Below the pieces are notes generated by a model. That model ran no database searches and was not told the origin of the DNA. It was given only the letters and a program-made list of their open reading frames with translations. DNA of 64,000 nt from positions 1 to 64,000 of IMG/VR virus record IMGVR_UViG_3300032308_002775; one strand, given 5' to 3'. The DNA comes from a virus. The stretch's first letter is position 1; every line of letters starts with the position of its first letter. The position numbers and the translations under genes were made by a program. This document shows positions 3,684 through 63,833 of the stretch, piece after piece.

Positions 3684-4205
3684 ATGGTTCGCAAGAAGAT
3701 CTCCGACCTTGACCCGAAGGGCAATCTGGCGCCGACGGACATCATTCCGATCGTCGACACGGAGCTCAACCGGCGCAAAACCAAGCGCACCACGGTTCAG
3801 GACCTGATTAACGAGGTCAACGCCGTCACGCAGCCCGAAAAGGGCGCAGCAGGCGGCGTGGCGACGCTGGACTCGAACGCCCGGCTGAATACAGCGCAGC
3901 TCCCGGCCCTGGCCGTCACCGAGACGTTCACCGTCAGCTCAGAAGCGGCCATGCTGGCGCTTCCGGCACAGATGGGCGACGTGGCGATTCGCGAAGATCT
4001 CGGCCAGACATACATTTTGCAGGGCCAGAACGCCACGGTGCTTGATAACTGGGCGCTCTTGGCCGTGACCTCGCAGACGCTTGTCGGGTTAACCGACGTA
4101 GCTGATACAATACCGACTGATCGCGCCGCCCTTGTGTACGACCCGGACACAAACCAGTGGCGCCCCGCCAAACTCGACCGCCTCACGGATGGGGGCGCGT
4201 TTTAA
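3684..4205 (+). CDS. Tail fibre-associated protein
   Basis: KISDL N-terminus, GVATLD, AMLAL..AQMGDVAIR, C-terminal DGGAF shared with the next fibre. Confidence 0.6.
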   Translation: MVRKKISDLDPKGNLAPTDIIPIVDTELNRRKTKRTTVQDLINEVNAVTQPEKGAAGGVATLDSNARLNTAQLPALAVTETFTVSSEAAMLALPAQMGDVAIREDLGQTYILQGQNATVLDNWALLAVTSQTLVGLTDVADTIPTDRAALVYDPDTNQWRPAKLDRLTDGGAF

Positions 4206-11503: not shown

Positions 11504-11924
11504 ACCCGCCAAAAGATTCATTCTCAACGTCGAGCAGCGCGTCTACGTGGAGAAATCCTGGGGCCATGAGGATTGGATCTACAACGGCCGGTATTGCGGC
11601 AAAAAGCTGCACGTCCGGAAGGGCAAGGAATGCTCGTTCCACTACCACCGGGTCAAGGACGAGGTGATGTACCTCGAGTCTGGTAAAATCCTGCTTACGT
11701 ACGGCTGGGACGAGGACCTGAGCCATGCGGCGCAGATTACCCTGACGCCGGACATGGCGTTCCATATTCCGCCCGGAATGTGGCACAAGTTCCAAGGCCT
11801 GGAAGAGTCAGTAATCACGGAGTTCAGCACGCACCACAACGACAAGGACGTGGTGCGCGCGGGCAAAGACGGCATGGAGGCCGCCGACGATGAAGAAGCG
11901 GAAGAAGCAGGCGCCGTTAGGTAA
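11496..11924 (+). CDS. Cupin (mannose-6-phosphate isomerase-like)
   Basis: VEKSWGHE, SFHYHRVKDE, HIPPGMWHKF, EFSTHH. Confidence 0.8.
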   Translation: MAEPAKRFILNVEQRVYVEKSWGHEDWIYNGRYCGKKLHVRKGKECSFHYHRVKDEVMYLESGKILLTYGWDEDLSHAAQITLTPDMAFHIPPGMWHKFQGLEESVITEFSTHHNDKDVVRAGKDGMEAADDEEAEEAGAVR

Positions 11925-15775: not shown

Positions 15776-16492
15776 ATGCGGAAACAACCAGCGCGGGCCG
15801 CGGAAAAGAAAACCGCTGAGAAAGCCCGCCGCCGACAAGAGCGCCAGCAAACCCGCGAACAGCAGGTGCGCCAGCCGCTTGAAATCACCTGGCGCACGCC
15901 AGCCCAGAAGTCGGCCTGGGAAGCGTTGGAAAATAACCTCGTCACGTTTCTTCTCGGCTCTGCCGGTTCCGGCAAGACGTTTCTCGCAATGGCGTACGCG
16001 CTGAATGCCGTACTGACCAACCAGGTCGAAAAGATCGTGCTCACCCGGCCGATCGTCGAGGCGGGCGAGAAGCTGGGCTATCTCCCGGGCACCTTTGGCG
16101 AGAAGGTCAACCCGTACATGCAGCCGCTGTACGACGCCATGGACGCCCTGGTCGGCAAGCAGTCGGCCAAGCGGGAGCTGATCAACAAGGCCGTGGTGCT
16201 GGCGCCCTTGTGCTACATGCGGGGTCGCACGTTCAACAACGCCATCTGCGTCTTTGACGAGGCCCAGAACGCGACCTACGGCCAGCTCAAGCTGTTTCTG
16301 TCGCGCTTCGGCGAGAGCAGCAAGATGATTATCACAGGCGACCCGCAGCAGTCCGACCTGCCGTTCTCACCGCCTCCGCTCAAAGAAGTCGTTGGTAAGC
16401 TGGAGAAGGCCAAGAACATTACGGCGATACAGTTTGCCAACAGCGACGTCGTACGGCATCCGATCGTCTCGACCATTCTGGAACGGTTGTAG
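15776..16492 (+). CDS. phoH: PhoH-like ATPase
   Basis: GSAGSGKT, LTRP, LGYLPG, YMRGRTF, DEAQN, GDPQQSD, VRHP. Confidence 0.95.
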   Translation: MRKQPARAAEKKTAEKARRRQERQQTREQQVRQPLEITWRTPAQKSAWEALENNLVTFLLGSAGSGKTFLAMAYALNAVLTNQVEKIVLTRPIVEAGEKLGYLPGTFGEKVNPYMQPLYDAMDALVGKQSAKRELINKAVVLAPLCYMRGRTFNNAICVFDEAQNATYGQLKLFLSRFGESSKMIITGDPQQSDLPFSPPPLKEVVGKLEKAKNITAIQFANSDVVRHPIVSTILERL

Positions 16493-27094: not shown

Positions 27095-28720
27095 ATGGAC
27101 GGCTTTTCTATTCTCGATCCTTTGGCGTGGGACCCGGCGGCTATCAAGCTGCACCCCGCCTACGTCGCTGGCAACACGGCGGCTTGCCTGTCGAAGACCG
27201 GCGCCGCCAACGGCACTAACCACTATCTGGCCGGGCGGCTGTACGTCTCCAAGAGCGGCTGGCTGCTCTTGTCGGTGCCCAACGCCCTGGTGCGCGGCGT
27301 ATTCGACGCCATGACCGCTCCGGGCGCCGAATTACCGCTCGCGGGCGCGCTTAACGTTCCGGACGTTAAACCCGACCTGCTCAACGCCCACATCTCGGTG
27401 ATGACCGCCGAGGAGGTCAGCAAAATCGGCGGCGACAAAATCAACGAGCGAGGGCACAACTTTCACTACGCTTTGGGCCCAGTCAAAGAGATCACGCCCA
27501 AGAACATTGACGGCATCAGCCGCGTCTGGGCGATCCAGGTCGCCAGCCCCGAGCTGGCCGCCCTGCGCAAGAGCTACGGCCTGTCGGCCCTGCCCAACGG
27601 CGACCACCCGTTCCACATCACGGTGGCTGTACGCAGGAAGAACGTCCTGGGCGCCAACGAGGTTGCCAAAGTCGACGGCAGCCGCGGCGAGCTGAAGGCG
27701 GCAGCAGTCTACAACTTTGAAGGCGACGTCCAGGGCGTCAGCCTCCGCAAAACCTTGCACCGGGTGCTCGACGATTTGAATCGCCCCGGCGTGATGTACA
27801 ACAACGCGCGAACCAGTGAGGCCCGCGCGGTGATTCCAGGTTCTAAGATGCAGCGCGAAGAGGTGTTAGATCTGTTGCGTTTCTATCTGTCGACGCGCAG
27901 CGGCCGCAAAGGGCCGCTTCAGGAAGGCGTGGACTACAAGATCACGCCGCTGCCCCAGGAAAAAGAGAAGCTGCGCAAAGTTACCATGCGCCCCGCCGAT
28001 GTGCAGAAGTTCGTCCGCGCGCAAGGTTTCAACCAGCTGGCAGCGGAGAACGAGGACTATCAGAAGCAGTGGCTCGGCGAGCGTTACCGTCTGCAACCTG
28101 ACGCCCGCGGCAATCTTCGCGGCGCCGTGCCTGATCTGGCGCACAAACAGCTCTTTAGCGGCGAGCCGGTTTACAACTATCAGCTGACGCCCGGCTGGAA
28201 CGGCACAAAAGACGCCCAAGAACTGTTGTCCGGCGGCGAGGCGGACCACAAGCCCGATAGCGAGTTTCCCCAGGAGGCCTTGGCAGAAGGCAAGAAGCAT
28301 GAGCGCGAGCACACAGACAATGCAGAAGTCGCCAAAGAAATTGCCAAGGATCACCTGTCCGAAGACCCGGCCTACTACGAAAAAGCCGAAATCCTAGAGA
28401 AGCTGTCAAACAGCGTTTACTTCAACCAGGCGCTGCAGGCGTTTAATCCCGCCGCGATCAACGCGCCGATTGCGTACGATCCCAACAAGCCAGTTTTTGA
28501 GAATCTCAGGAATCAGCTCGGCGAGGCCAAGCGCCGCGGCGACTTCATTCTGCAGACGCAGCGCAACCAACGGGCTTGGCAATCGGCGCTCGACCCGCAG
28601 TACCGTTACCAGCTGGCGATGCAGGCGATCCGCGGCGAGATGCCCCAGCCGAGCGTCACTGACCAGCTCATCGAGATGTACGGCGACCAGGCGCTAGCTC
28701 GTACCGGACTTGGGAGATAA
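27095..28720 (+). CDS. Multidomain protein: 2H phosphoesterase + acylphosphatase-like + EH..D...IAKDHL.E...YY domain
   Basis: HISV and HITV motifs; FEGDVQGVSLR; EREHTDNAEVAKEIAKDHLSEDPAYY. Confidence 0.6.
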   Translation: MDGFSILDPLAWDPAAIKLHPAYVAGNTAACLSKTGAANGTNHYLAGRLYVSKSGWLLLSVPNALVRGVFDAMTAPGAELPLAGALNVPDVKPDLLNAHISVMTAEEVSKIGGDKINERGHNFHYALGPVKEITPKNIDGISRVWAIQVASPELAALRKSYGLSALPNGDHPFHITVAVRRKNVLGANEVAKVDGSRGELKAAAVYNFEGDVQGVSLRKTLHRVLDDLNRPGVMYNNARTSEARAVIPGSKMQREEVLDLLRFYLSTRSGRKGPLQEGVDYKITPLPQEKEKLRKVTMRPADVQKFVRAQGFNQLAAENEDYQKQWLGERYRLQPDARGNLRGAVPDLAHKQLFSGEPVYNYQLTPGWNGTKDAQELLSGGEADHKPDSEFPQEALAEGKKHEREHTDNAEVAKEIAKDHLSEDPAYYEKAEILEKLSNSVYFNQALQAFNPAAINAPIAYDPNKPVFENLRNQLGEAKRRGDFILQTQRNQRAWQSALDPQYRYQLAMQAIRGEMPQPSVTDQLIEMYGDQALARTGLGR

Positions 28721-35931: not shown

Positions 35932-36849
35932 ATGGCAGAAACCAAACAAAGCGCTTCGAACTGGACCAGCTATTTTCTCGGCGAGTCCACCAGCCCGGCC
36001 ACGCAGATGTTTAACAAGGCGCGGGAGGCTGTAACCGCTGCGGATACAGCCAAGTGGAATCAGCAGCACGGCCAGACCCTGCTCAACACGATGGCGCTCA
36101 CGGGCGGCGTCGGCATGGGCGGCCTGGCGCTCTACCACCTGCTCCGCGGCCTGAAGCCGACCGGCAAGAAGGAGCGGAAGTACCAAAACATTGCCGCGGG
36201 TTCGCCGGTCATGGCCAAGTCGCCGCTTGAGGCGCCGCAGGAGAAGGCGGCTGTTCTCGACCAAATCGTCAGCGGTGTCGGATCCGTGCCGGGCGCGATT
36301 GTTGACTCTTTCCCCAGGCTGTTCAAGTCGCTGGGTGAAGCTGGCGCCGCGCCCAAAGATCCCAACATGCTGCGCGGTGCGGTCGCCACGACGCTCGGCA
36401 CCGGCCTGGGCCTGGGCGCCCTGTACGGCGGCGGCAAGCTGATCAACTCGATCATGGCAAAGAAGCAGAAGGACGACGCGACCGACGAAGTCGAAGAGGC
36501 CCGCGCCCGGTATCACGCCATTCTCGCGGGCAAGGAAGCCGCCGCGCTCGACAAGCTGTATGCCCGTTATCAGGAAAAGCGCGCCGAGGGCTGGCTGGAC
36601 GGTTTGTTGGAAATTGGCACGGATTCGGCGCCCCGCGTGGCTTTGACGTCCATGCTGCTGGCCGGACTCGGCGCGGGCGGCATTGGCGCGAAGTACATGT
36701 ACGACCAGACGGCAGCGAAGACCCGCGGCGAAAACCTGGCCAAGGCCCAGGCATCGCGCGCGCGCATGAAGGGCCTGCCGACGATGTGGGTTGACCCGGA
36801 AGAACTTGTGAAGGTTAAGCAGCTGGCAGAACAAAGCAGCGATGAGTGA
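35932..36849 (+). CDS. Glycine-zipper protein (putative virion/ejection protein)
   Basis: Three Gly-rich hydrophobic segments separated by EKAA/KEAA/EKRA. Confidence 0.65.
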   Translation: MAETKQSASNWTSYFLGESTSPATQMFNKAREAVTAADTAKWNQQHGQTLLNTMALTGGVGMGGLALYHLLRGLKPTGKKERKYQNIAAGSPVMAKSPLEAPQEKAAVLDQIVSGVGSVPGAIVDSFPRLFKSLGEAGAAPKDPNMLRGAVATTLGTGLGLGALYGGGKLINSIMAKKQKDDATDEVEEARARYHAILAGKEAAALDKLYARYQEKRAEGWLDGLLEIGTDSAPRVALTSMLLAGLGAGGIGAKYMYDQTAAKTRGENLAKAQASRARMKGLPTMWVDPEELVKVKQLAEQSSDE

Positions 36850-39800
36850 GCGCAATGCCAGACTCGATCCTCTCCGGTCCGCCTGCGCCCATCACGCCGA
36901 CGCCGCAACCACAAGCGCCGCTGCAGACGCGCTCGTTCGGTGACATCGGCGCGCTGCGCACCAACATCTTTGATCGGGCGCTGCAGAGCGCTTCTTCTCT
37001 CGAGCCGATCAAGAACGACCTCTACACGCTGCAGCTTGCGAACGTCGCATACACCGGGCCGGAAAGGTTCACCAAGGCCGATCAAAAGAAGGCCGTGCTC
37101 ACGGGCAACTCGCTCCATCGGCGGCTCACGGGCACCTGGAACCTGATCGACAACACCACCGGTGCGCCGATCGCCACCCGGCAGCAGACGATCGCCCACG
37201 TGCCGTATCTCACCGACTCTGGCACGTTCGTGAACCGGGGTGTCGAGTACACCCTGGCCCACCAGATGCGGCTCAAGGCGGGCGTCTACACCCGCGAGAA
37301 GGACAACGGCGAGCTGGAGGCCCACGTCAACGTGCTGCCCGGCAAGGGGCGCATGCACCGGTACTTCCTCGACCCGAAGACCGGCGTGATGAACATCAAC
37401 ATCGGCCAGGCGAAGATTCCGCTGATGCCGCTGCTCAAGGCGATGGGCGCCAAGGACTCCGACATCCGCGCCGCTTGGGGCAACGAGATCACCGCCGTCA
37501 ACATGGAGAAGGGCGATGCGGGAACGCTCGACAAGCTCTACCAGCGTTTGGTCTACCGGCAGACTCCCGGCATCGACGCAGCTGCCAAGCAAAAGGCAAT
37601 TGCGGACGAGTTTGCCCGCATGGAACTCGACCCCGACGTTACGCGGCGCACTCTTGGCAAGGAATACAAGAACCTTACCCCCGAAGCAATTCTCGACATT
37701 ACGAAAAAGCTCATCGCCCTCAATCGCAAAGAGGCCGACCCCGATGACCGTGACGCAATGGCGTATCAAAGCATCGTTGGGCCCGAGGATCTGATCTCCG
37801 AACGGTTCACCAAAGACAAGCAGGCGCTGCGCAAGTTGCTCTGGAAGGCGACGGCTAAGAAGAACCTTGACCACGTCCCGACCGGCGTGTTCAACAAGGC
37901 CATCCAGGCCGCGCTGATTGGCTCTGGGTTGGGCAGTTCGCTCGAGGAAATCAACCCGGCCGAGATTTTCGACCACCAGGGCCGCGTGACTCGCATGGGC
38001 GAGGGCGGCATCGGCTCGCTTGACGCCGTGCCCCAAGAGTCGCGCTCTGTGCAGCCCAGCCACCTGGGCTTTGTGGACTTCCTGCGCACGCCAGAGTCTG
38101 GCAAGGTGGGCGTCGACATGCGTTTTGCCCGCGGCGCCATGAAGGGCACCGACGGCAAGATCTACACGCCGGTCGTGAACATACAGACCGGCGAGACAGA
38201 GATGAAGACGCCAGGCGAGCTGGCCGAGACGCCGCTCGCTTTTCCGGGCGAGGAAAAGACCGACATGCCGATGGTCGCGGCACTCGTTGGCGGCAAGATG
38301 CAGTACGTGCCGCGTGAGGAAGTCCAGTTCTCGCTGCCCAACATGGACAGCACGTTCTCCGCGCTTTCGAACATGGTTCCGCTGAAGAGCATGATGAAGG
38401 GCCAGCGCGCGGTGATGGCCAGCCGCATGTTTACCCAGGCGCTGCCGCTCTCGGGAGCCGAGGCGCCGCTCGTGCAGTCGGCCGTCGTCGACAAGGACGG
38501 CGTGTCCCACGAGGACGAGATGGGCGAGAAGCTCGGCGCCGTGAAGGCCCAGTTTCACGGCCAGGTCGTTTCGGCCGAGCCGGGCATGATCGTGCTGCGC
38601 GATCGTGAGGGCAAGAAGCACGAGATCGACCTGTACAACGACATGCCCTTTAACCGGAAGACATTCTGGCACCAGACGCCGGTCGTGAAGCCAGGCGACG
38701 TGATTAAGCCGGGGCAGCTTCTGGCCCACTCGAACTTCACGGACCCTAGCGGCACAGCGGCGATGGGCAAGAACTTACGTGTCGCCTATTTGCCGTACCA
38801 GGGGAAAAACTACGAAGACGCCGTGGTGATCTCGGAATCGGCGGCCAAGAAGCTCACCAGCGAGCACATGTACCAGCACGAGGCTGAGTGGACCGAGAAC
38901 AGCCACGTCGGGAAGAAGGCGTTCGTTGCGCTGTTTCCGGGCGAGTACGACAAGAAGCAGCTCGAGAACTTCGACGACAAGGGCGCGATCAAGAAGGGCA
39001 CGGTCGTGAACTACGGCGACCCGCTGATCCTCCAGGCCAAGGCCAAGGAGACAACCTACGGCAAGGTGCATCGCGGCCGGGCGGGAAACTTCATGAACGA
39101 GACGCTGACTTGGGAGCACCACTCGCCGGGCGTGGTTACCGACGTTGAGCACACCGACAAGGGCGTCTCGGTCGTTGTGAAGAGCCAGGCCGAAATGCAG
39201 GTGGGCGACAAACTTACGGGGCGCTACGGCGACAAGGGCGTGGTAGCCGACATTGTTCCAGACCACCGCATGCCACAAGACAAGGACGGCAGTCCGTACG
39301 AGGTGCTTGTTTCGCCGCTGGGTCTGATCTCCCGCGTGAACCCGGCGCAGGTCGTCGAAGCGGCGCTCGGCAAGATTGCGGCGAAGACCGGGCAGCCGTT
39401 CAAACTCAAAGACTTCGACAGCGCGCAGGACCTCGTAGAGTTTGCCCAGAACGAGCTTGGGAAGCACGGCCTCTCCGATACTGAGGACGTCACGGATCCG
39501 GAAACCGGTCGTAAGATCAAAAGCGTGCTGACCGGCAACCGGTTCTTCATGAAGCTCCATCACACCGCGGAGTCCAAGGGCCAAGGCCGCGCGATGAGCA
39601 GCTACACGGCGGAGGGCACTCCGGCCAAGGGCGGCAGCGAGGGCGCCAAGCGCGTCGGCATGCTGGACCTGGGCGCGCTGCTCTCCCACGGCGCGGGCAA
39701 AGTCATTCGTGACGCCAAGATGGTCCGCGGGCAGGCGAACCCCGAGTACTGGTCGCAGTTCATGGCGGGCTACACTCCGCCGCTGCCCAAGGTGCCGCAC

Positions 39801-41261
39801 GTCTACGAGAAGTTTGTTAACCAGCTCAAGGGCGCTGGAATTAACACCGTGCGCGAAGGGACAAAGACGCACATCATGGCGGTGACCGACCGCGACATCG
39901 ATGAGCTGGCCGGGGCCCGCGAGGTCACCAACTCCGAGACAGTCGACTGGAAGGGGCGGCTCAAGCCGATCAAGGGCGGCCTGTTCGATGAAACGCTCAC
40001 CGGCGGCCACGGCGGCAACCGCTGGAGCAAGATCACGCTTCACGAACCGATGCCCAACCCGGTCATGGAGGAGCCAATCCGCCGGGTGCTCGGGCTTACC
40101 GAGAAAGAGTTCCGCGGAGTGCTCGCCGGGCAGGTGCAGCTGTTCGACAAGACCGGCCCGGAGGCCATCCAGGGCGCCCTGGGGCGGATCAACCTGCCCA
40201 AGGCGATCGAGCAGGCCAGGTTAGATATCAAATCGGGACGCAAGACTTTGCGCGACGCCGCCGTGCGGAAGCTGGGATACCTCAAGAACGCTGAATCGAC
40301 CGGCGTCCATCCCAAGGACTGGATGATGAGCAAGGTCGGCGTGCTCCCGCCGATTTTTCGGCCCGTCTCCACGATGGGCGCCAAAAAGTTACCGCTCGTG
40401 GCCGACGCGAATTACCTCTACAAGGAACTGCTCGACGCGAACGACACGCTCAAGGAAGCCTCCGGCGCCCTGAGCGAATACAGCGACGAACGGCTGGGCC
40501 TGTACGACGCCATGAAGGCCGTCTCCGGGTTGGGCGATCCGACGCAGCCCAAGAATCAGGAACGCCGTGTGAAGGGCTTTTTGCAGCACGTCTTCGGCAG
40601 TTCGCCCAAGTACGGCACCGTGCAGCGCAAGCTTCTCTCGACCACGGTCGACTTGGTGGGGCGGGCAGTTATTACGCCGAACCCGGACCTCGACATGGAC
40701 CAGGTCGCGCTTCCCGAGGACAAGGCCTGGGAGGTCTACAAGCCGTTCGTGGTGCGGGGCCTGGTGCGCCGCGGAATGCCCCGGATGAATGCGCTGGACG
40801 CCGTCGAAAACCGCAACAAGGCGGCGTACGACGAGCTGAACACGCAGATGTCGTCCCGGCCGATCGTCATTAACCGTGCGCCGGTGCTCCATCGATACGG
40901 TATGATGGCGTTTTATCCGAAGCTCACCAAGAACAAGGTTATGGAGGTTAACCCGGTCATTACCAAGGGTTTTGGCGCCGACTTTGACGGGGACGCGATG
41001 CAGTATCACGTTCCCAGCACCGAGGACGCCGCCAAGGAAGCCGTCGAAAAAATGCTTCCAAGCAAAAATCTCTTTTCGACGGCAAGCTTCAAGGCCCACT
41101 TTGTTCCGAACAGGGACTATCAGACCGGGGTTTACCTGGCTTCGAGCCGGGTCGACAAGAAACAGAAGCCGAGGGTATACAAGTCACGGCAGGACGCCAT
41201 GAACGCCTATCGCCGCGGGGAGATTGACGTCGACACCCCGGTGCATATCGTCGAGAGTTAA
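36846..41261 (+). CDS. Phage DNA-directed RNA polymerase: beta subunit fused to the N-terminal (catalytic) half of beta'
   Basis: Beta motifs RTPESGKVG, NYEDAVVIS, GDKLTGRYGDKGVV, SPLGLISRVN, MKLHH; beta' motifs VLPPIFRP, VDLVGRAVI, NRAPVLHR, GADFDGDAM. Confidence 0.95.
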   Translation: MSAMPDSILSGPPAPITPTPQPQAPLQTRSFGDIGALRTNIFDRALQSASSLEPIKNDLYTLQLANVAYTGPERFTKADQKKAVLTGNSLHRRLTGTWNLIDNTTGAPIATRQQTIAHVPYLTDSGTFVNRGVEYTLAHQMRLKAGVYTREKDNGELEAHVNVLPGKGRMHRYFLDPKTGVMNINIGQAKIPLMPLLKAMGAKDSDIRAAWGNEITAVNMEKGDAGTLDKLYQRLVYRQTPGIDAAAKQKAIADEFARMELDPDVTRRTLGKEYKNLTPEAILDITKKLIALNRKEADPDDRDAMAYQSIVGPEDLISERFTKDKQALRKLLWKATAKKNLDHVPTGVFNKAIQAALIGSGLGSSLEEINPAEIFDHQGRVTRMGEGGIGSLDAVPQESRSVQPSHLGFVDFLRTPESGKVGVDMRFARGAMKGTDGKIYTPVVNIQTGETEMKTPGELAETPLAFPGEEKTDMPMVAALVGGKMQYVPREEVQFSLPNMDSTFSALSNMVPLKSMMKGQRAVMASRMFTQALPLSGAEAPLVQSAVVDKDGVSHEDEMGEKLGAVKAQFHGQVVSAEPGMIVLRDREGKKHEIDLYNDMPFNRKTFWHQTPVVKPGDVIKPGQLLAHSNFTDPSGTAAMGKNLRVAYLPYQGKNYEDAVVISESAAKKLTSEHMYQHEAEWTENSHVGKKAFVALFPGEYDKKQLENFDDKGAIKKGTVVNYGDPLILQAKAKETTYGKVHRGRAGNFMNETLTWEHHSPGVVTDVEHTDKGVSVVVKSQAEMQVGDKLTGRYGDKGVVADIVPDHRMPQDKDGSPYEVLVSPLGLISRVNPAQVVEAALGKIAAKTGQPFKLKDFDSAQDLVEFAQNELGKHGLSDTEDVTDPETGRKIKSVLTGNRFFMKLHHTAESKGQGRAMSSYTAEGTPAKGGSEGAKRVGMLDLGALLSHGAGKVIRDAKMVRGQANPEYWSQFMAGYTPPLPKVPHVYEKFVNQLKGAGINTVREGTKTHIMAVTDRDIDELAGAREVTNSETVDWKGRLKPIKGGLFDETLTGGHGGNRWSKITLHEPMPNPVMEEPIRRVLGLTEKEFRGVLAGQVQLFDKTGPEAIQGALGRINLPKAIEQARLDIKSGRKTLRDAAVRKLGYLKNAESTGVHPKDWMMSKVGVLPPIFRPVSTMGAKKLPLVADANYLYKELLDANDTLKEASGALSEYSDERLGLYDAMKAVSGLGDPTQPKNQERRVKGFLQHVFGSSPKYGTVQRKLLSTTVDLVGRAVITPNPDLDMDQVALPEDKAWEVYKPFVVRGLVRRGMPRMNALDAVENRNKAAYDELNTQMSSRPIVINRAPVLHRYGMMAFYPKLTKNKVMEVNPVITKGFGADFDGDAMQYHVPSTEDAAKEAVEKMLPSKNLFSTASFKAHFVPNRDYQTGVYLASSRVDKKQKPRVYKSRQDAMNAYRRGEIDVDTPVHIVES

Positions 41262-41274
41262 CACGGAGGTTTCC

Positions 41275-42009
41275 ATGAGTTTCACGGTCAATCCCGAACT
41301 GCTGAAGATGGCGCGCCATGCCCTCGAAAAGTCGGCGGTGGTGCCATCCGACGCGGCGATGATGGCGGCAGGCGGCGCGCCCCCAATGGGCGGCGAACCG
41401 CCCGATCCTTCCATGCTTGGCGTTCAGGGCGCCGCCCAACCGGTTGACCCAGCGACTGCTGCCATGGGCGCCGCGCCGCCTCCGGGCGCTGACCCGACTG
41501 GCGCGGCCACCGCTGCGGCGCCCCCTGCCGCGGCGGCCCCGGCTCCGATGCCACCGGCCACGCCGACTGGCGGCGCACCTGGCCAGCAGAAGCTCAAGCC
41601 CGAGCAGATGATGCAGATGCTCGACTACCGGCTTTACAACATGCAGCAGCAGCTCACGGCGATCATGAACGCCATGGGCGTTCAGGTTCCCCCCGAGTCG
41701 CTCGTCCTGCCGCCCGGCACGACCGGCGCGCCTCCAGCCGAGACCGCGCTGCCCGGCGGACCGATGGCTCCGCCGCCCCAGGACCCTAACGCCGCTGGTG
41801 GTCCGATGCCTCCAGGCGGCCCGGTGCCCCCGGGCGGCCCGATGGATCCCAGCCAGCCTCCGATGGACCCCGCCGCTGCCAAGCAGGCGAACTGGTGGGA
41901 TAAGCCGTTGGCGAAGTTTGCTGAAGAACAACCTGACGAGCCGACGTCGATCCAGAATCTGGCGGCGGCGGCGGGCATCCTGCTGAGGAACATGGGGCGT
42001 GCGCGTTAG
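41275..42009 (+). CDS. Pro/Ala-rich low-complexity protein
   Basis: GGAGG RBS; Pro-rich arms around a short Met/Gln-rich helix. Confidence 0.7.
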   Translation: MSFTVNPELLKMARHALEKSAVVPSDAAMMAAGGAPPMGGEPPDPSMLGVQGAAQPVDPATAAMGAAPPPGADPTGAATAAAPPAAAAPAPMPPATPTGGAPGQQKLKPEQMMQMLDYRLYNMQQQLTAIMNAMGVQVPPESLVLPPGTTGAPPAETALPGGPMAPPPQDPNAAGGPMPPGGPVPPGGPMDPSQPPMDPAAAKQANWWDKPLAKFAEEQPDEPTSIQNLAAAAGILLRNMGRAR

Positions 42010-42241
42010 ATTTCAGAGCAAGTTGCAGCCGACCGTCGCACCCGCGGACAGCGTGGTGATCGAGGACGACCTGGGAAACCCGCTCTTCGTGGCGTCTCAG
42101 CTCACCGACTCGATCATTTTTGCTGATGCGCGGGATGCAGATTTTCACGCGCTTATACGCCAGCTCGGCATCGACAAAGTGGTTTCCGTTAACGAGGTCG
42201 CGCCTAAACCGCTGAACAAGAACGTGATCTGGACGCCGTAA
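41999..42241 (+). CDS. Small hypothetical protein
   Basis: Fills the gap before the beta'-C gene. Confidence 0.6.
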   Translation: MRVRFQSKLQPTVAPADSVVIEDDLGNPLFVASQLTDSIIFADARDADFHALIRQLGIDKVVSVNEVAPKPLNKNVIWTP

Positions 42242-42242
42242 C

Positions 42243-44123
42243 ATGCTCAAGACGACGCTCGGTCAAATTCTCGTAAACGAGGCGCTGCCCGAGGACATGC
42301 GCAACTACGAGCGCGTCCTGACCAAAAAGGAAATGGGCAAGCTGGCCACGGAGCTGGCGCAGAAGTACCCGGACAAATACCGGGACGTCATGAAGCGCCT
42401 GCACGACGTGGGCCGCGACGCTGCGTACACCACGAACGGCCTGTCGTTTGGGCTGAAAGATATCAAACCGACGGTGGCCGCCCGCGACGTACAACTGCGG
42501 GTGCAGCGGCAGCTCCGCGGCATTCTGGCAAACCGCGACCTGGACGATAAGACCCGCTCGCTGGCCATTCTCAAGCTGGCCGCTGGCGCGCAGAAAGAGC
42601 TTGTCGAGCGCGTTTACGATGAGGCGCGCGGCAACGACAACCCGCTCGCGCATCAGGTAACCGGGTCTGCCGTCGGCAACAAGTTCAGCCTGAATTCGCT
42701 GATCGGCGCCGACATGCAGTATGTCGACCACAAGAACGACCCAATTCCGATTCCGGTGATGCGGAGTTACGGCCAGGGGCTTCGACCCGTGGAATATTTT
42801 GCGGGCGCCTTCGGCACCCGCAAGGGGTTGATGGACCTAAAAACGGCGACGGCCGACGCGGGCTTTTTCGGCAAACAGCTCGCCCAGATGACGCACCGGC
42901 TGCTCGTCACGGCCGACGATGACGACGATCAAGAGCGCAATGCCACTGCGCAAGACCGCGGCTTTCCGACCGACGTGGACGACGTCGACAACGAGGGCGC
43001 GCTTCTGGCGCGACCGGTGGGGCCGTACAAGCGCAACACCGTCCTGACGCCAAAGATTCTTAAAGACATCAAGGAGATGGGCATTCAGGACATCCTGGTG
43101 CGCAGCCCGCTCACCGGCGGCCCGGACGACGGCGGCGTCTACGCCAAAGACGTCGGCTACCGCGAGAAGGGCAAGCTGCCTCCAATCGGCGACTATGTCG
43201 GTATCGCCGCCGCCCAGGCCCTCTCCGAGCCGGTGACTCAGGCGCAGATCAGCTCGAAGCACTCCGGCGGCGTGGGCGGCGCGGCCTCAATCTCGGGCTT
43301 CAAGGCGATTAACGCGCTAGTCCAGGTCCCGAAAAAGTATCCCGGCGGCGCCGCGCATTCTCAGCTTGACGGATTCGTGCAGGAAATCCGCGAAGCGCCC
43401 CAGGGCGGCCATTACGTTCAAATCGGCGGCGAAGATCATTACGTGCCGGTCGACCAGGAGCTGACGGTCAAGAAGGGGCAAGAGGTCGAGGCGGGCGACT
43501 CGATCACCAATGGCATGCCCAATCCGGCCGAAGTCGTCCGGCACAAGGGCATCGGCGAGGGGCGCAGGTACTTTGTGCAGGCCATGCGCCAGGTTCTCCA
43601 GAACTCCGGCGTGTCGCCTCACCGCCGTAACATTGAACTGCTCTCGCGCGGGCTGGTCAACCACGTTCGCATGACCGACGAATACGGTGATTACAACCCC
43701 GACGACGTGGTGCCGTACTCGATGCTCGAGCGTGCTTGGCAGCCGCGTCAAGGAAGCGTGACGGGCGTGCCCAAAAGCCTGCAGGGGCATTACCTGGAGC
43801 GGCCCGTGCTCCACTACTCGGTCGGCACGAAGATCGGCAAGAATGTCGCCAGCACGCTTCAAAAGTACGGCATTAACAATGTCGAAGCGCACCGGGAACC
43901 GCCGCCCTTCCAGCCTGAAATGGTGCGCGGCATGTCGAACATCTCGAACGACCCAGACTGGATGACCCGAATGCTCGGTTCTTACCAGCAAAAGGGCCTG
44001 CTCAGCAGCGTGCACCGCGGTTCGACCAGCGACGCGGCTGGAAGCAGCTTCGTTCCCGCGCTGGCCCGCGGCGAAACGTTCGGCGTGACCGGCGCGACGA
44101 GCGGATGGCGCCCGCAAACGTGA
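42243..44123 (+). CDS. Phage RNA polymerase beta' C-terminal half (bridge helix and trigger loop)
   Basis: TTLGQILVN, SYGQGLRPVEYF, GTRKGLMD..TADAGF, VRSPLT, AAAQALSEPVTQ, RNIELL. Confidence 0.92.
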   Translation: MLKTTLGQILVNEALPEDMRNYERVLTKKEMGKLATELAQKYPDKYRDVMKRLHDVGRDAAYTTNGLSFGLKDIKPTVAARDVQLRVQRQLRGILANRDLDDKTRSLAILKLAAGAQKELVERVYDEARGNDNPLAHQVTGSAVGNKFSLNSLIGADMQYVDHKNDPIPIPVMRSYGQGLRPVEYFAGAFGTRKGLMDLKTATADAGFFGKQLAQMTHRLLVTADDDDDQERNATAQDRGFPTDVDDVDNEGALLARPVGPYKRNTVLTPKILKDIKEMGIQDILVRSPLTGGPDDGGVYAKDVGYREKGKLPPIGDYVGIAAAQALSEPVTQAQISSKHSGGVGGAASISGFKAINALVQVPKKYPGGAAHSQLDGFVQEIREAPQGGHYVQIGGEDHYVPVDQELTVKKGQEVEAGDSITNGMPNPAEVVRHKGIGEGRRYFVQAMRQVLQNSGVSPHRRNIELLSRGLVNHVRMTDEYGDYNPDDVVPYSMLERAWQPRQGSVTGVPKSLQGHYLERPVLHYSVGTKIGKNVASTLQKYGINNVEAHREPPPFQPEMVRGMSNISNDPDWMTRMLGSYQQKGLLSSVHRGSTSDAAGSSFVPALARGETFGVTGATSGWRPQT

Positions 44124-44204
44124 TTCTGTAGGATGTAAGAGCTGCGACACGGTAAATTGTTGCTTACACGTGTCTTAAGATTGTGCCGCACGGAGGTGGC
44201 TACT

Positions 44205-46580
44205 GTGTACAACCGGAAGAAGACTGCGTCGTCGACGGCGCACTGGCTGAATGTGGTCCGTTCGCATAGTCGGACCCAGACCAAGCAGGCCAATTTCGGC
44301 GGGAAGGGCGACTCGGCCTCGTTCGAGCAGGCCTTTAGCAATCTGGCGCACGCCTACCTCCGCGACTCGGCGCCGAAGCTGCTTGATCACGAGATCGGCT
44401 TTCAGCTGCTCGACCGGGACCGCGAAAACACCAAGGCGATTGGCGTTTTTGCTTTCAAAGTCGGCTCTAACTGGCTGTACGCCCCGGTTTTTTTCCTGAA
44501 CGGCGACCTCAAGGGCCACGAACTCCTGTACATCAAGAACCAGGACATGTTCGTGCCGCTCAAGGAAAACTGGATTAACTACCTTGTCAACCGCAAGCCC
44601 AACATCCTGGGCAATTCGGTGGACCGCAACATGTCCCAGCTGGGCATGCGGCAGCCCGACTTCACGCAGCTCTCGCGCAGCCCGGCCAAGTTCGGCTCCG
44701 CGCGGCCGACGCTCAAGGAGATGATGACGGCCGTTATGCCGACCCTGGCCAAGACGGCCACGATGAACACGGCGCTGGCGTTCCAAGAAATTGGCCGCGT
44801 GCTCGATCTGCCGAAGTTTCTCAAGGAAGCTCGCGTCACGACGATCGACATGCTCGTCAAGACGTTTCAGGACGCCCCGGCGCTCGCCAAGGCGTTTAAC
44901 GACTTTCACGGCCTGGACGTGATCAAGGAGGCCATCGCGGTCGCAAAGGACCGCGAAAGCCGCCCGAAGATCGCCAGCGTGCTGTCGGAAGCCCCGGAAA
45001 AGAGCCCGGCTGTCGCCGGGCTCAAGATCATTTCCTACTCGAAGACCGTGCAGACGATGCTGCCGCCGGAAACGACTGAGGAAGACCAGGAGAAGCTGCT
45101 GCGCGACGGCGTGCTTATCCTCGACCAGCGCGACCGTGACAACGTCTCGATTCCCTACCACATCCAGGTTGAAAAGAAGCTTTGGAACCCGACAAAGAGC
45201 GGGCTGTACGACATCCTCGTTAAGCCGGGCAACATCGAACGGGTTTACATCGCCATGTTCCCGATGGGCGCCGCAAAGCGTTCAAACTTCTGCACGATTG
45301 TTCGGACCGAGGGCAAGCCCGAGTGGATCAACACTCGTAGCGACCAGGTCTTCTGCATCGCGTGCCCTTCTCAGAAAGAGGAGGAAGCGTGGTTTGACGG
45401 CTTGCCCGACGCCGATAGCCTGCCTTCTGGGGGCCGGTACATGCTCATCAGCAAGCGCGGTGACGCCACCGTCCCGGTCCGCGTGATCCGCGAGTACGGC
45501 GAGAGCGCGTACGGCACGACGAGCTACGAGGTCCACATGGAGGACCACTCGAAGTTCCCGCCCAAGGGATCAATCGGCCCGTGCGGCTACATCGACCCGC
45601 TGAATTACGACAAGTACCGCGACGGCGTGCGGCTGCACCTCAACGGCAAGAAGGGCAGCCAGCTCCGCGCGAGCATGGGCGACATCTTCGTGCCCGAGGG
45701 CTTCAAGCTTCTCAAGTGCGCCCCTGGCGAGGACGACGCCGAGACAGCCGAGGACCAGGGCGCCTGCGGCTGCGGTCAAAGCGAGATGCCGCCGCTGATG
45801 CCGGGCAACCTGGCGGATGCCCAGCTCGAACTGATGGGCAAAACGGCCAGCCTTGAGGTCTACCACAACGGCACCGAGGTCACGATCAACAAGGAGGCGG
45901 CCCGCAGCCCGATCGCCGCGCTGGTGACGCTCGTCGAGCATCACGGCCTGCGCGAGGACGCCGCGCGCGAGATTCTCAAGCAGGCGGCCGCCAAGCGGAA
46001 GTTCTCCTGCCATGTGAAGTACGCCAACCCTTATGGCGCGCCGATGATGGTCAACCAAGGCCCGACCGCCCCGAGCGATCCGGGCCCGGTGATGGGCGGC
46101 GAGACGATCATGGGCGCCGACGTGCCGACCCAGATGGGCATCGACATCGGCATGCCGGTGGCGGACATGTCGGCCAGTCTCACGGACCGGCAGATCTACA
46201 ACCCGAACACGCGGCTCGACAAGAAGGACGTCCGCAGCGTGCTGCAGGCGGCCCAGTCCGGCCAGAAGGAAGTGTTCGACACGGCGATGATCGGCAGCAT
46301 GCTCCGCGCCGTCCGCGACGACTCGATGGTTGATCGCTACATGGGCGACCTGACCAACGGGCTCGACAAGCTCGGCCGCATCCTGTTCATGTTCTACTGG
46401 CACGGCGACCGGTTTGCTGATCGGTACGGCAAGTCTGACATGCCGGAGCTGGAGGACTCGCTGCGCAACGCCTTCGAGATGCTCGGCGACGTGATTCTCT
46501 TCCTCAAGCAGAAGACTATCGAGCCGTATCCGGAAGAGGTTGGCTCAGACGCCGATCTCTCTAATGTCGCAAGCGCTTAA
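44205..46580 (+). CDS. Large hypothetical protein (putative head/virion protein)
   Basis: GTG start after GGAGG; many K-x-A motifs. Confidence 0.65.
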   Translation: MYNRKKTASSTAHWLNVVRSHSRTQTKQANFGGKGDSASFEQAFSNLAHAYLRDSAPKLLDHEIGFQLLDRDRENTKAIGVFAFKVGSNWLYAPVFFLNGDLKGHELLYIKNQDMFVPLKENWINYLVNRKPNILGNSVDRNMSQLGMRQPDFTQLSRSPAKFGSARPTLKEMMTAVMPTLAKTATMNTALAFQEIGRVLDLPKFLKEARVTTIDMLVKTFQDAPALAKAFNDFHGLDVIKEAIAVAKDRESRPKIASVLSEAPEKSPAVAGLKIISYSKTVQTMLPPETTEEDQEKLLRDGVLILDQRDRDNVSIPYHIQVEKKLWNPTKSGLYDILVKPGNIERVYIAMFPMGAAKRSNFCTIVRTEGKPEWINTRSDQVFCIACPSQKEEEAWFDGLPDADSLPSGGRYMLISKRGDATVPVRVIREYGESAYGTTSYEVHMEDHSKFPPKGSIGPCGYIDPLNYDKYRDGVRLHLNGKKGSQLRASMGDIFVPEGFKLLKCAPGEDDAETAEDQGACGCGQSEMPPLMPGNLADAQLELMGKTASLEVYHNGTEVTINKEAARSPIAALVTLVEHHGLREDAAREILKQAAAKRKFSCHVKYANPYGAPMMVNQGPTAPSDPGPVMGGETIMGADVPTQMGIDIGMPVADMSASLTDRQIYNPNTRLDKKDVRSVLQAAQSGQKEVFDTAMIGSMLRAVRDDSMVDRYMGDLTNGLDKLGRILFMFYWHGDRFADRYGKSDMPELEDSLRNAFEMLGDVILFLKQKTIEPYPEEVGSDADLSNVASA

Positions 46581-54294: not shown

Positions 54295-54840
54295 ATGGCA
54301 ACTGCTCCCAATCTGATCACTGAGAAGGGGCTCGACGTCAAAAAGGGCTGGTTCCAAATGGCCGCCCTCGACTACGACGCCAAGCTCGCTTCGGCTGTCT
54401 CCTTCGACGTTCCGCGCGGTCGCGTGGTCCACGTCGACTCGGACGGCAACTTCCGCCCTGGTGCGCACAACACCGGCGTTGCGATCTTCCTGCTCAACGG
54501 CTCGGCCGAGGCGGACGTCAGCAACCCCGGCACCACGGCTTCTGGCAACTTCATGCACCGGGCCATCGCCCCGACCGGCAAGATGTCCGGCCTCGTGGCG
54601 ACGGGTGGTTACGAGATTGCGTCGACTGAGTTCGACTCGTCCCGCACCTACACCCCGGGCGATCTGCTCACCGCGACGGCTTCGGATTCGAACGCCACGA
54701 CCGGTGGTCGGATCACGAACCAGTCGGTCACGCAGTTTGTGACGCCGGTGGTCGGCGTTGTGTCGTCCGGTAAGGCCAAGAACCACAACGGGGTCTACGC
54801 GCTGTCCTTCTGGTCGGCGTGGCTCCCGGGCGAAGCCTGA
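54295..54840 (+). CDS. Putative capsid decoration/cement protein
   Basis: Beta-rich ~180 aa immediately upstream of the capsid gene; YTPGDLLTA. Confidence 0.6.
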   Translation: MATAPNLITEKGLDVKKGWFQMAALDYDAKLASAVSFDVPRGRVVHVDSDGNFRPGAHNTGVAIFLLNGSAEADVSNPGTTASGNFMHRAIAPTGKMSGLVATGGYEIASTEFDSSRTYTPGDLLTATASDSNATTGGRITNQSVTQFVTPVVGVVSSGKAKNHNGVYALSFWSAWLPGEA

Positions 54841-54880
54841 ATCCATCCTTAGTCACACCCGGAACATGGAGGTTCCTTAA

Positions 54881-55807
54881 ATGCCTACTCAGCAAGAAAT
54901 CCAGCTGCTCAACGAGACCCTCTTCGAGCAGCTCGACACCCCCGGCATGCAGAAGCAGGCCGTTGACGCTGTTAACGACTTCACGCGCACCAAGATGCGT
55001 GAAGACGGGTTCTATCGGCGGATTATGCCGCCGCTCACCATCACCAATGACGAGCTCGACCGCCAGGTCGATACCGACAAGCCGGTGAAGGTGGTCGACA
55101 AGGAACCCGATTCCCCCGCGGCTGTGTCGCTTCCGTTCGCGACGCTCCCGATCAACTTCTACATCCGTGGCCCGCGCTACCGCGTCATGTTTGACCGGAT
55201 CGTGTCGCCCCGCGCTGTGAAGGACGTCGACGAGCTGCGCACCTACGTGATCGACATCCGGCAGGTTCTTTCCGACAACATGATCAAGGACATGTTGGCG
55301 GAAGAGGACTCGAAGTTCATCGCGGCCCTCGACGCCGTCCTCCCGACCCCGGGTGTGGCGAACGTCGCTTCGGGTGCGGTGCAGTACGAGGAAATCCACG
55401 GCGGCATCACGCGTGAGACGATTGTCGACGCGCTGAAGGTCATGCCGCGGACGCCCTCGCACTTCGAGGTCGAGACCTGCCTGGTGAACAACATCACCAT
55501 CAAGGAGCTGCTGAAGTTTGGCCGCGACGAGATGGGTGGTGACTTCTCGCAGGACATCATCAAGAACGGTTGGGCGGAGACCAACTTCCTCAACTGCCGC
55601 TGGATCGTCACGATCAAGCGCGACCTTGTTGACGACGACACGATGTACATGTTCGCGTCGCCCAAGTTCATTGGCAAGAATTACGAGCTCGAGCCGACCA
55701 CGATGTACATCCGTCGTGAGGCTTACATGCTCGAGTACTTCGCCTACAACACGCAGGGCGGCTCGTTCGGTCACACGAACGGCCTGGCCCGCGTGGACTT
55801 CAAGTGA
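54881..55807 (+). CDS. Major capsid protein (HK97 fold, putative)
   Basis: Position after protease/scaffold/decoration genes, strong RBS, strongly biased codons, 3' hairpin; MLAEEDSKFI backbone-helix-like segment. Confidence 0.75.
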   Translation: MPTQQEIQLLNETLFEQLDTPGMQKQAVDAVNDFTRTKMREDGFYRRIMPPLTITNDELDRQVDTDKPVKVVDKEPDSPAAVSLPFATLPINFYIRGPRYRVMFDRIVSPRAVKDVDELRTYVIDIRQVLSDNMIKDMLAEEDSKFIAALDAVLPTPGVANVASGAVQYEEIHGGITRETIVDALKVMPRTPSHFEVETCLVNNITIKELLKFGRDEMGGDFSQDIIKNGWAETNFLNCRWIVTIKRDLVDDDTMYMFASPKFIGKNYELEPTTMYIRREAYMLEYFAYNTQGGSFGHTNGLARVDFK

Positions 55808-55825
55808 TGCCGTGAGACTCGGAAC

Positions 55826-55860
55826 GGGAGGGCGGGCGCCTCGTAAACGCCCGCCCTCCC
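55826..55860 (+). terminator. 13-bp GC hairpin after the capsid gene (no U-tract; stabiliser or partial terminator)
   Basis: GGGAGGGCGGGCG / CGCCCGCCCTCCC. Confidence 0.6.
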
Positions 55861-55884
55861 CGACCACCCCCAAGGAGAGCACAG

Positions 55885-60885: not shown

Positions 60886-60991
60886 GGAAAACCAATCACC
60901 CGCGTGAACAGGTATTTTTTTTCATGACAACGGGTTGGATATACTAACCCAGTCACTACCGTTCACGACACTAGGCATGGAGGCCTGACGC

Positions 60992-63811
60992 ATGTCGAGC
61001 TACGTCAAACCACAAGTTCTTGTTTTTCAAGAATTCCGGATCGTCCCGACCGAGATCACTGAGCCGCTTCGCGCTCACGTCTCCGGCCCGCACGGCGTCC
61101 TGCATCGTTACAGCGACGTCGACGAAAAGCCGCTCTGCAGGCTGGGTCTCTATGACTACCTGAGCGACGTTTGCTACGCCTGGCCGGACCGGCTTCCCGG
61201 TTCGCGCGTCGACACGGGTTACACCAAGCTCTACATCGACGATGCGCTGCTCCTTTATTACGAGCACACGCTCGGCGAAACCGACACCGCGATCACCGCC
61301 GTCTCGGGCCGGACGAACTGGATCGAGGCCAGCGATCTGGCGTTCAAGAGCAACGGCGCGGCGTACCCGCGTAGCTCTGTTTTCGCTGATCGCGATGTGC
61401 AGCTCGGCGACGTTGTTCAGCTTCGCGCTGTCAGCCCCGACTCGGATTGCGAAGAGACGGTCCTTAACACCATTGTGACCGGCTTCGCGAGCGAGACCGT
61501 GGCGGCGGATGTCGGCGCAGCGTCGAACGACGACGACAACCAGGGAACCATCTCGGCCGACACCGACTGGGAAAAGATCGGCGGGCCGGACAACTGCGTC
61601 GACATCGATTCGGTTGACGGCACAGCCTACGACGGCCGCGTCCCGGGCGACGTGACCGAAGAGTACACCATCACCGTGGTCAAGAGCTCTGTCCCGGGCT
61701 GCGCTGCCGCCCGGCTGCGCGTCCGCTCGGCCAGCGGCAACGACGATCAGGACGAGGTGGTGCCGGAGGATTTCGGCACCCCGACGCCGATCGGCACCCG
61801 CGGGCTGACGGTGACGTTCGACTACGACCCCGATTCGGGTTGCTCGCTCTCGGCCGATGAAGCCGAAGTGGCTCCTGATGCGTTTGTCGTGGGTCAGCGG
61901 TGGCAGGTCACCGTGCAGCAGGCGTTCACCGAGGTTAACGCGACTTCGGGTGGCGACTACGTGGGCGACAAGAACGACATCTACGTCGTTGAGTGCACCA
62001 AGGGCGGCACGTGGGCCGAGCTTCCCGAGATCACCGTCCGTACGGTGAAGGGACTCGACTTCTCTGGCCCGACCGAGGTCACCGGCGCGACCACGTTCGT
62101 GAGCATTGGCTCTAAGGGCGTGGAGATCAAGTTCCACGGCGCCACGGAGTCCACGAGCGTCCCTGCGCTTCGCAAGGGCGACAAGTGGTACATCACGGTG
62201 CTTTCCAGCCAGGCTGGCTCGGTGCGCCGATTGATCCTCCGGGATGATATCCCGGTGGACATGGTCGACGCCGCCGACATGGATCTGCGCCTGTTCATTA
62301 AGGACAACATCCAGGTCTCGGAGAATCGGATCGGGTTTGCGCCCCAGACGAACTACGAGCAGGAGCCCACGCAGATCTGCGTGCATGAAGGCGTCATCGC
62401 TTACCACCCCGAGTGGACGAGCGGCGGCGTCGAGCAGCCGCTTGAAGTGCGCGCGGGCACGCTGTACGTCGAGTACCGCGAGTGGCTCACCGACCTCGCC
62501 GACGAGGTAAACGCGATTGGCGACGTGGCCGACCTTGACCAGATCAAGGGCCAGCTCCACCCCGATAACCCGCTGAAGTGGGGCGTTTACAAGGCGCTCT
62601 CCAACAGCAACGGGACCGTGGTGAAGTACACGGCAGTTGCCGAGCCGGAAGACCTCGACAGCTGGGTCCAGGTGCTCGAGCGGGTCAAGGGCCGGGACGA
62701 TCTTTACAACCTCGTCCCGCTGACCTTCGACCGTCGGGTGCAGAACCTGTACGCGGCCCAGATCGACGCCGAGTCCAGCGAAATCAACAACAACTGGAAG
62801 AGCGGCTTCTTCGCTCTGAAGGCTGTGACGAGCAAGATGATCGTCGGCGAAGGCGCCACGATCGCCGGTGTCTCGGGCAACACGATTGCCGACCCGGTCC
62901 TCGCGACCCTTTCGGACGATCCCAACGCCACCAACACGCAGTACACGCTGCTCCGGGTGCTTGAGGGGTCGGGCTACTTCATCACCAACAACGTCCAGCC
63001 GGGCGACCTCGTCCGGTATCTGTACACGACGGACGCGTTCGGTGAGGAGCAGTACGAGGAGTTCGTGGTGGATCGCGTGGTCTCCGAGAACTCGCTCGTG
63101 CTGTTCTCCGGCGCCGACGCTGCGGTCACCGTGGCGGCTCGCGTCGAGATTTACCACAACCTCAACCGCAACGAGATCGCCGACGATCTGGCCGAGCAGG
63201 CCGGATCGCTGTCGAATCGCCGGGTCTGCGCCGTGTGGCCTGATCAGGTGGGCGAGGCGGGCACGCTGATGCCGGGTTACTACCTGGCCGCGGCGCTGGC
63301 CGGTCTTGCTTCGGGCGTTGTCCCGCAGCAGGGTCTCACGAACGTCGAGGTCGCCGGTTTCGACGACTTCACGCGCAGCTACAAGTACTTCAACGAGACG
63401 CAGCTGAATCGGATGGCCGAGGCGGGAGTGTGGATTGTGACTGAAGATCGCGACGGTACGCCGCACTCGCGGCATGCGCTGACGACGGACAACCTCGACC
63501 TGAACCGTCGGGAAGAGATGATCCGCCGCAACGTGGACTCGATGTCGTACCTGTTCCTGCGTCGGTTGCGTCCGTACATCGGCCGCACCAATGCCACGCC
63601 GGGAATGGTCGACCTGCTCGCGAACGAAGTCACCGAGCTGATCGACTTCTTCAAGTCGAATGGCGTGACCGCGGAACTCGGCTCGCAGCTCATCGACGGC
63701 ACGATTCGGATCCTCCGCATTCACCCGCTGTTGCGCGATCGGATCGAGATTGTCCTCGATCTGGTGGTCCCGGCACCGCTCAACAACATCGAACTCCACC
63801 TTGTTGTCTGA
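60992..63811 (+). CDS. Contractile tail sheath protein
   Basis: YVKPQVLV N-terminus; AAALAGL...QGLTN, QLNRMAEAG, RHALTT, PAPLNNIEL C-terminus. Confidence 0.85.
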   Translation: MSSYVKPQVLVFQEFRIVPTEITEPLRAHVSGPHGVLHRYSDVDEKPLCRLGLYDYLSDVCYAWPDRLPGSRVDTGYTKLYIDDALLLYYEHTLGETDTAITAVSGRTNWIEASDLAFKSNGAAYPRSSVFADRDVQLGDVVQLRAVSPDSDCEETVLNTIVTGFASETVAADVGAASNDDDNQGTISADTDWEKIGGPDNCVDIDSVDGTAYDGRVPGDVTEEYTITVVKSSVPGCAAARLRVRSASGNDDQDEVVPEDFGTPTPIGTRGLTVTFDYDPDSGCSLSADEAEVAPDAFVVGQRWQVTVQQAFTEVNATSGGDYVGDKNDIYVVECTKGGTWAELPEITVRTVKGLDFSGPTEVTGATTFVSIGSKGVEIKFHGATESTSVPALRKGDKWYITVLSSQAGSVRRLILRDDIPVDMVDAADMDLRLFIKDNIQVSENRIGFAPQTNYEQEPTQICVHEGVIAYHPEWTSGGVEQPLEVRAGTLYVEYREWLTDLADEVNAIGDVADLDQIKGQLHPDNPLKWGVYKALSNSNGTVVKYTAVAEPEDLDSWVQVLERVKGRDDLYNLVPLTFDRRVQNLYAAQIDAESSEINNNWKSGFFALKAVTSKMIVGEGATIAGVSGNTIADPVLATLSDDPNATNTQYTLLRVLEGSGYFITNNVQPGDLVRYLYTTDAFGEEQYEEFVVDRVVSENSLVLFSGADAAVTVAARVEIYHNLNRNEIADDLAEQAGSLSNRRVCAVWPDQVGEAGTLMPGYYLAAALAGLASGVVPQQGLTNVEVAGFDDFTRSYKYFNETQLNRMAEAGVWIVTEDRDGTPHSRHALTTDNLDLNRREEMIRRNVDSMSYLFLRRLRPYIGRTNATPGMVDLLANEVTELIDFFKSNGVTAELGSQLIDGTIRILRIHPLLRDRIEIVLDLVVPAPLNNIELHLVV

Positions 63812-63833
63812 GATCACTTAGGAGAAAGAATCT

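Follow-up and report, generated by a model that had tools for sequence, protein, structure and literature searches.

In Salmonella phage Arash (OQ632216), the multisubunit RNA polymerase (RNAP) is carried by two proteins, gp206 (1525 amino acids, aa) and gp216 (606 aa), which the original paper labels β and β′ without mentioning that gp206 is a fusion of β with the N-terminal part of β′ (β::β′-N) and that gp216 is a separate C-terminal part of β′ (β′-C) (PMC10585845). Phages of the phiKZ/AR9 type package one enzyme of each polymerase pair in the virion, and the virion and non-virion enzymes of phiKZ-like phages share the region of their β′ split site with cyanobacteria (PMC7598289). Here we describe a locus with the Arash-type arrangement in IMG/VR virus record IMGVR_UViG_3300032308_002775, from an uncultured phage with a genome of about 200 kb. 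The record is 153,669 bases long (CheckV completeness 75%), and the stretch that we analyzed, hereafter the window, is its first 64 kb (64,000 nucleotides); coordinates marked G000 refer to the full record and reach beyond the window. A megablast of deposited phages gave no match. On its + strand, the window encodes a 1471-aa chain (P0001; 36846-41261), in which a compact β runs into β′-N, and a 626-aa β′-C chain (P0002; 42243-44123). We consider it probable that these two open reading frames (ORFs) encode the catalytic core of the phage's only RNAP, which would be assisted by a sigma factor, packaged in the virion and delivered with the DNA.

Pfam placed Rpb2_2, Rpb2_3 and Rpb2_6 on aa 175-921 of the fused chain (Rpb2_6, E = 2e-50), Rpb1_1 and Rpb1_2 on aa 1150-1401 (Rpb1_2, E = 1e-23) and Rpb1_5 on the second chain (E = 2e-23). 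The initial annotation of the locus had named this domain mapping as a check; both ORFs lie where it put them, every motif it quoted was located in the translations, and its claim that the two double-psi barrels share one chain is borne out by Rpb2_6 and Rpb1_2 on the 1471-aa ORF. In PHROGs, the fused chain matched a β family, followed by positions 1-540 of a β′ family that has 1216 positions; the second chain matched positions 616-1095 of the latter. Solved bacterial polymerases were matched by both chains, the first hitting β (E = 1e-62) and β′ (E = 6e-48), and the second hitting β′ (E = 2e-40).

The β portion spans aa 1 to about 1006 (36846-39863, +). With E. coli-type numbering, taken from the Salmonella rpoB and rpoC genes present in the phage collection and from phage-family profiles, it aligns with β residues 111-222, 420-888, 1049-1147 and 1207-1337, and does not have the lineage-specific insertions around 225-400 and 940-1040. 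The active-site motif GDKLTGRYGDKG (aa 787-798; 39204-39239, +) keeps both conserved lysines, and is followed by SRVN at aa 829-832 and MKLHH at aa 902-906. At the β/β′ junction (39837-39884, +), the β end GINTVREG is followed by a two-residue spacer and then by β′ from about residue 16 (THIMAV), with neither a linker nor a stop, and this junction is conserved in 27 aligned relatives. The β′-N portion (aa ~1007-1471; 39864-41258, +) gave a profile match to β′ 156-550 and contains the Mg-binding loop, GADFDGD (aa 1377-1383; 40974-40994, +), with all three Asp kept. Because residue 4 is a nearly invariant Met in the alignment of relatives, translation of the fused chain probably starts at the ATG at 36855.

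The second chain aligns with β′ 571-946 and 1188-1287, plus region H. It carries the bridge helix (aa 185-213; 42795-42881, +) and a trigger-loop segment with its conserved His (aa 328-343; 43224-43271, +), and so the assignment of both elements to a 626-aa ORF about 1 kb downstream holds, the gap being 981 nt. The cut in β′ costs only about 15 loop residues, those that separate the barrel from the conserved segment after it. SI3 is missing from this chain, as are the lineage-specific insertions from β, which makes the enzyme compact. Thus, the locus has the β barrel with its two lysines, the DxDxD loop, the bridge helix, the trigger loop and region H of a bacterial-type core, but no alpha dimer or omega and neither of the two β′ zinc sites.

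The same layout recurs in many relatives. The fused ORF was found in 46 IMG/VR loci at 54-91% identity, many of them on contigs of 195-229 kb, and PF00562 and PF00623 occur together in proteins of about 1460 aa from at least 120 clusters. A profile scan with β′-C yielded 80 loci. Of these, 79 include upstream sequence, and in every one of the 79 the fused gene precedes β′-C on the same strand, with a spacer of 0.86 to 6.7 kb; the fused chain stops at query residue 1469-1471 and β′-C begins at residue 1-6, with identity as low as 47%. An exhaustive search for β′-C returned 1093 representatives at 50% identity (E<=1e-30), and nearly all of the best 150 share the N-terminal start. Relatives show no change in the three Asp of the Mg loop, in either β lysine, in the bridge helix or in the His of the trigger loop. 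Among 50,697 deposited phage records, the layout occurs only in Arash and in Vibrio phages D69, D148 and D181; the remaining matches come from contaminating host rpoBC or from phages whose genes are arranged differently.

We found no further subunits of the conventional core. HMMs for alpha (PF01000, PF01193) and omega (PF01192) gave no hit in this genome, and PF01000 and PF01192 gave none in five relatives rated 98-100% complete by CheckV, with positive controls in both searches. Each of these five near-complete relatives has a single catalytic β′ copy, and no second polymerase was found in this genome. Both zinc sites are gone as well: the N-terminal zinc ribbon (E. coli C70, C72, C85, C88) is deleted from β′-N, and the positions of the second site (C814/888/895/898) are Asp, Gly or gaps in β′-C. 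Cysteine is absent from all 2097 residues of the two chains, compared with 1.35% in long ORFs genome-wide (P about 7e-14), and 108 of the 120 fused homologues listed are likewise cysteine-free, the cysteine-rich exceptions bearing inteins.

HMM searches also agreed with the initial report of no alpha, omega or sigma gene in the window. A sigma-70-family-like gene of 270 aa, homologous to Arash gp10, does occur elsewhere in the genome, 31 kb downstream (G000:75232-76044), where it adjoins a Baseplate_J gene among baseplate genes. The protein scored 38.4 bits with Sigma70_r3 (cut-off 25.3) and has a weak region 4 helix-turn-helix; a profile of 12 orthologues matched sigma70 413-594 of solved holoenzymes (E = 8e-10), and its AlphaFold model matched sigma chains in Foldseek with probability 1.0 over 225-270 columns. 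The gene is present in five of five near-complete relatives, and the protein and 11 orthologues contain no cysteine. The enzyme is thus probably a two-chain core plus sigma. The earlier description of a minimal two-chain RNAP was right about the core, but it omitted this conserved gene.

In the model that we favor, chain 1 would comprise the compact β tethered to β′ ~16-555 (E. coli numbering), including both double-psi barrels and the Mg loop, and chain 2 would supply the remainder of β′ from about residue 570 onward, including its bridge helix, trigger loop and region H. Since alpha and omega are absent, we infer that the covalent β-β′ tether stands in for the α2/ω assembly scaffold. Promoters would most likely be recognized through the phage's own 270-aa sigma-70-family protein, on which the enzyme is presumed to depend. 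The packaged enzyme would be ejected with the DNA and transcribe the early genes, and newly made copies may transcribe later ones.

The two chains lie in a tightly packed, co-directional + strand block that continues into genes for virion proteins. Directly after β′-C comes an 807-aa ORF (44157-46580) weakly similar to Arash virion protein gp218, its position kept in relatives. Homologues of gp222, of the major capsid protein (54881-55807; 30% identity to Arash gp226) and of structural protein gp236 (a 939-aa ORF at 60992-63811 with 27% identity and a weak hit to a tail-sheath domain) follow. The capsid homologue puts the polymerase genes in the structural module, as the earlier placement among head genes implied, and from such a block the enzyme would probably be made late, packaged and delivered with the DNA.

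Packaging itself seems to us fairly likely, and is suggested by virion mass spectrometry in Arash together with the position in the structural module and the cysteine-free chains. In purified Arash virions, no protein yielded more spectra than gp206 (3516, vs. 1333 for the capsid protein), which had 100% peptide coverage, gp216 was also among the top virion proteins, and the sigma protein gp10 was detected at 100% coverage (PMC10585845). The gp206 count speaks against the most serious alternative, namely that the two chains form a functional RNAP that is not packaged and acts only in middle or late transcription, while host RNAP reads the early genes. Such an enzyme would be consistent with the single polymerase set, as opposed to the two enzymes of phiKZ-like phages, one in the virion and one not, and other sigma-bearing phages redirect the host enzyme (PMC7824862). 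We nevertheless regard it as unlikely, because the genes lie inside the structural block here and beside the portal gene in Arash and D69, and because the chains and sigma are cysteine-free like a few very large ORFs without assigned function.

Other ORFs with no cysteine lie at 3684-4205, 11890-15162, 35932-36849 and 54295-54840 in the window and at G000:68744-72250, 72776-73582, 75232-76044 (the sigma-like gene) and 80297-80941. This set includes two family-less ORFs of 1090 and 1168 aa, and we tentatively suggest that it represents virion proteins ejected from the capsid by way of the tail.

Several observations weigh against a packaged, sigma-assisted and fully active enzyme. Bacterial enzymes begin the Mg loop with N, whereas the window's enzyme has G there; the 120 fused relatives listed divide into 101 with G at this position, 17 with N and 2 with A. 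The Asn of bacterial enzymes helps to recognize the substrate ribose, so its loss may alter sugar discrimination. By eye, the β flap-tip helix, which binds sigma region 4, appears shortened. The Pfam sigma region 2 model had no hit in this genome, so that membership of the 270-aa protein in the sigma-70 family is likely but not complete, and the confidence of its AlphaFold model is moderate (pLDDT 68). Across 74 intergenic gaps, k-mer enrichment revealed no convincing repeated promoter motif, and sigma-70-type promoters and terminators around the genes were no commoner than in shuffled sequence. The record holds only 75% of the phage genome by CheckV. Finally, the evidence for packaging comes through an Arash orthologue that is only 25-32% identical, and the Arash authors allow for carry-over of abundant enzymes into virion preparations (PMC10585845), which also speaks for an unpackaged enzyme.

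Loss of the Mg-loop Asn and of both zinc sites, together with the absence of alpha and omega, could instead mark a degenerate polymerase relic that now serves as a non-catalytic internal head or ejection protein. This strikes us as very improbable, since the catalytic residues listed above are invariant at 47-91% identity and the sigma gene is co-conserved. A frameshift, a misassembly or a rejoining of the chains by split inteins has a negligible chance of explaining the layout: although relatives of both genes often contain inteins, hundreds of independent assemblies and four isolates agree in the open frame and in the chain ends, so that the junction is no artefact, and the chains have no cysteine and no intein-like sequence at either end, while peptides cover Arash gp206 completely (PMC10585845).

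Inteins are frequent in both polymerase genes of the relatives. A minority of fused chains (P0010, P0012, P0117 and others) reach about 1800 aa and carry inteins with PF14528 and PF14890, and β′-C homologues (P0137, P0166, P0170 and others) are interrupted by inteins near 209/210 and 336/337, numbered as in the window's chain. Annotated as two ORFs in D181 (L077 3399-8913) and D148, the fused gene is broken there after about 515 aa by about 950 bp that include a gene for a homing endonuclease. The interruption, perhaps an intron and perhaps a genuine further split, shows how such genes can be cut.

In a sister group with about 50% identity (P0126-P0245), β′-C bears a C-terminal extension of ~600-1500 aa with no match in the window (loci L129, L139, L142-L145, L149, L152, L155 and L157). 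Some β′-C extensions hold DUF5661 (PF18905) and AAA_33-type kinase domains. A 541-aa ORF of the window (27095-28720, +) has a 2H phosphoesterase domain and DUF5661; because DUF5661 is fused to β′-C in some relatives, this ORF may point to a polymerase-associated enzyme that processes RNA ends. One relative, P0032, whose fused chain is 84% identical, is labeled at NCBI as a Betaproteobacteria metagenome-assembled genome, a label that is a weak hint at the host or a binning artefact.

The 981 nt between the two chain genes hold two ORFs without a family. The first, P3 (41273-42009, +), is rich in Pro and Ala, of low complexity, and variable or undetected in relatives. The second, P4 (41999-42241, +), encodes a conserved, beta-rich protein of 80 aa and stops 1 nt before the β′-C start. 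In about 40 relatives P4 (35-65% identity) always ends within a few bases of the β′-C start, and at locus L046 a TGA stop separates the two. The earlier view of two unrelated intervening genes does not do justice to P4, which is conserved and abuts β′-C. The AlphaFold model of P4 is small and beta-rich (pLDDT 77). We considered P4 as an omega-like subunit or a missing piece of β′ and rejected both: the model had no fold match in the Protein Data Bank (PDB) and no informative Atlas hit, and a search for longer, fused homologues of P4 found none. With just ~15 loop residues between the chains, P4 is not needed to complete β′. P4 showed no similarity to the small ORFs preceding β′-C in D69 or Arash, which lack a detectable counterpart.

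Directly upstream of the polymerase genes, a 305-aa ORF (35932-36849, +) is cysteine-free and weakly conserved at this position in relatives; it matched no known family and had no informative Atlas hit. Searches of 20 neighboring ORFs against PHROGs and Pfam gave almost no assignments. Elsewhere in the window, a PhoH-like ATPase is encoded at 15776-16492 (+; PF02562, E = 5e-70). Long antisense ORFs at 36570-38729, 54728-55882 and 60971-63817 (all -) are shadows over true + strand genes and not genes themselves, as is typical of DNA with 62% GC.

If active as read, two chains plus sigma would make the smallest known sigma-dependent RNAP of the cellular type, and the alpha dimer, omega and both zinc sites would be dispensable once β and β′ are tethered. 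The clade is very large, with more than 1000 β′-C clusters at 50% identity. More tentatively, these phages of roughly 200 kb may share a very large and so far undescribed class of minimal sigma-dependent RNAPs without alpha, omega, zinc or cysteine, in which the tether replaces alpha and which are packed and ejected through the tail with their sigma, making the phages independent of host RNAP from the first minute; we hold this broader picture to be somewhat less likely than not. The cultured Salmonella and Vibrio members of the clade make the biochemistry, structure, packaging and ejection directly testable.

Among known systems, the enzyme is most like those of Arash and of Vibrio phages D69, D148 and D181. 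Arash has in common with the phage described here a fusion that ends just after the barrel, a separate β′-C, a sigma homologue, a polymerase site in a structural module of matching gene order, and capsid and other virion genes. Arash gp206 matches the fused chain over aa 43-1468 in one piece (32% identity), and the β′-C chains are 25-28% identical. The sequences have diverged strongly. The phages also differ in spacing, with nine genes between the chains in Arash and two here, and in detail: Arash and D69 read AADYDGD at the Mg loop and keep a few cysteines, whereas the window's chains read GADFDGD and have none. In Arash and D69 the fused gene follows the portal gene.

In the RNAP of cyanobacteria and plastids (gamma/rpoC1 plus rpoC2), β′ is also cut shortly after the catalytic barrel. 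In the alignment to the cyanobacterial structure 8h3v, chain 1 ends about 64 residues before gamma (625 aa) does, and residue 51 of P0002 pairs with residue 34 of rpoC2. This puts the phage cut, at about E. coli β′ 555/570, near the cyanobacterial cut and upstream of it by a few tens of residues, which makes the initial statement of a broadly similar split point correct, if not exact. Cyanobacterial RNAP differs from the phage enzyme in leaving β unfused and in having alpha, omega and the zinc sites. Helicobacter and Wolbachia have natural β-β′ fusions that join the β C-terminus directly to the β′ N-terminus, but their β′ is full-length and alpha and omega are still used, while the fused chain of the phage stops after the barrel.

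Enzymes of the phiKZ/AR9 type resemble this one in being phage-encoded, in having no alpha or omega and in a β′ cut after the barrel, yet their β is in 2-3 pieces, their divergence is far greater, and they have two polymerase sets but lack a sigma (PMC7598289). Here, β is whole and fused, one set is present, and there is a sigma. Tailed phages with bacterial-type subunits, as here, include the mReC phages (PMC7481178) and phages such as Vibrio Va2 and Rhizobium RHph_Y65; in these, β′ is one unsplit, unfused protein of ~1130-1190 aa. The mReC screen demanded that COG0085 and COG0086 be separate proteins, each at least 800 aa long, and that the motif NADxDGD be present (PMC7481178), and so excluded a layout with a fused chain, a 626-aa β′-C and GADFDGD.

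Three reviews (PMC7598289, PMC7824862 and PMC13282480) and the Arash paper (PMC10585845) contain no β::β′-N fusion with a separate β′-C. The novelty first claimed for the architecture thus survives in part: the layout is not unique, occurring in four isolates and hundreds of metagenomic phages, but no paper that we could search gives an account of it, widespread though it is. It adds a further partition of β and β′ to the conventional, cyanobacterial and phiKZ-like ones already known.

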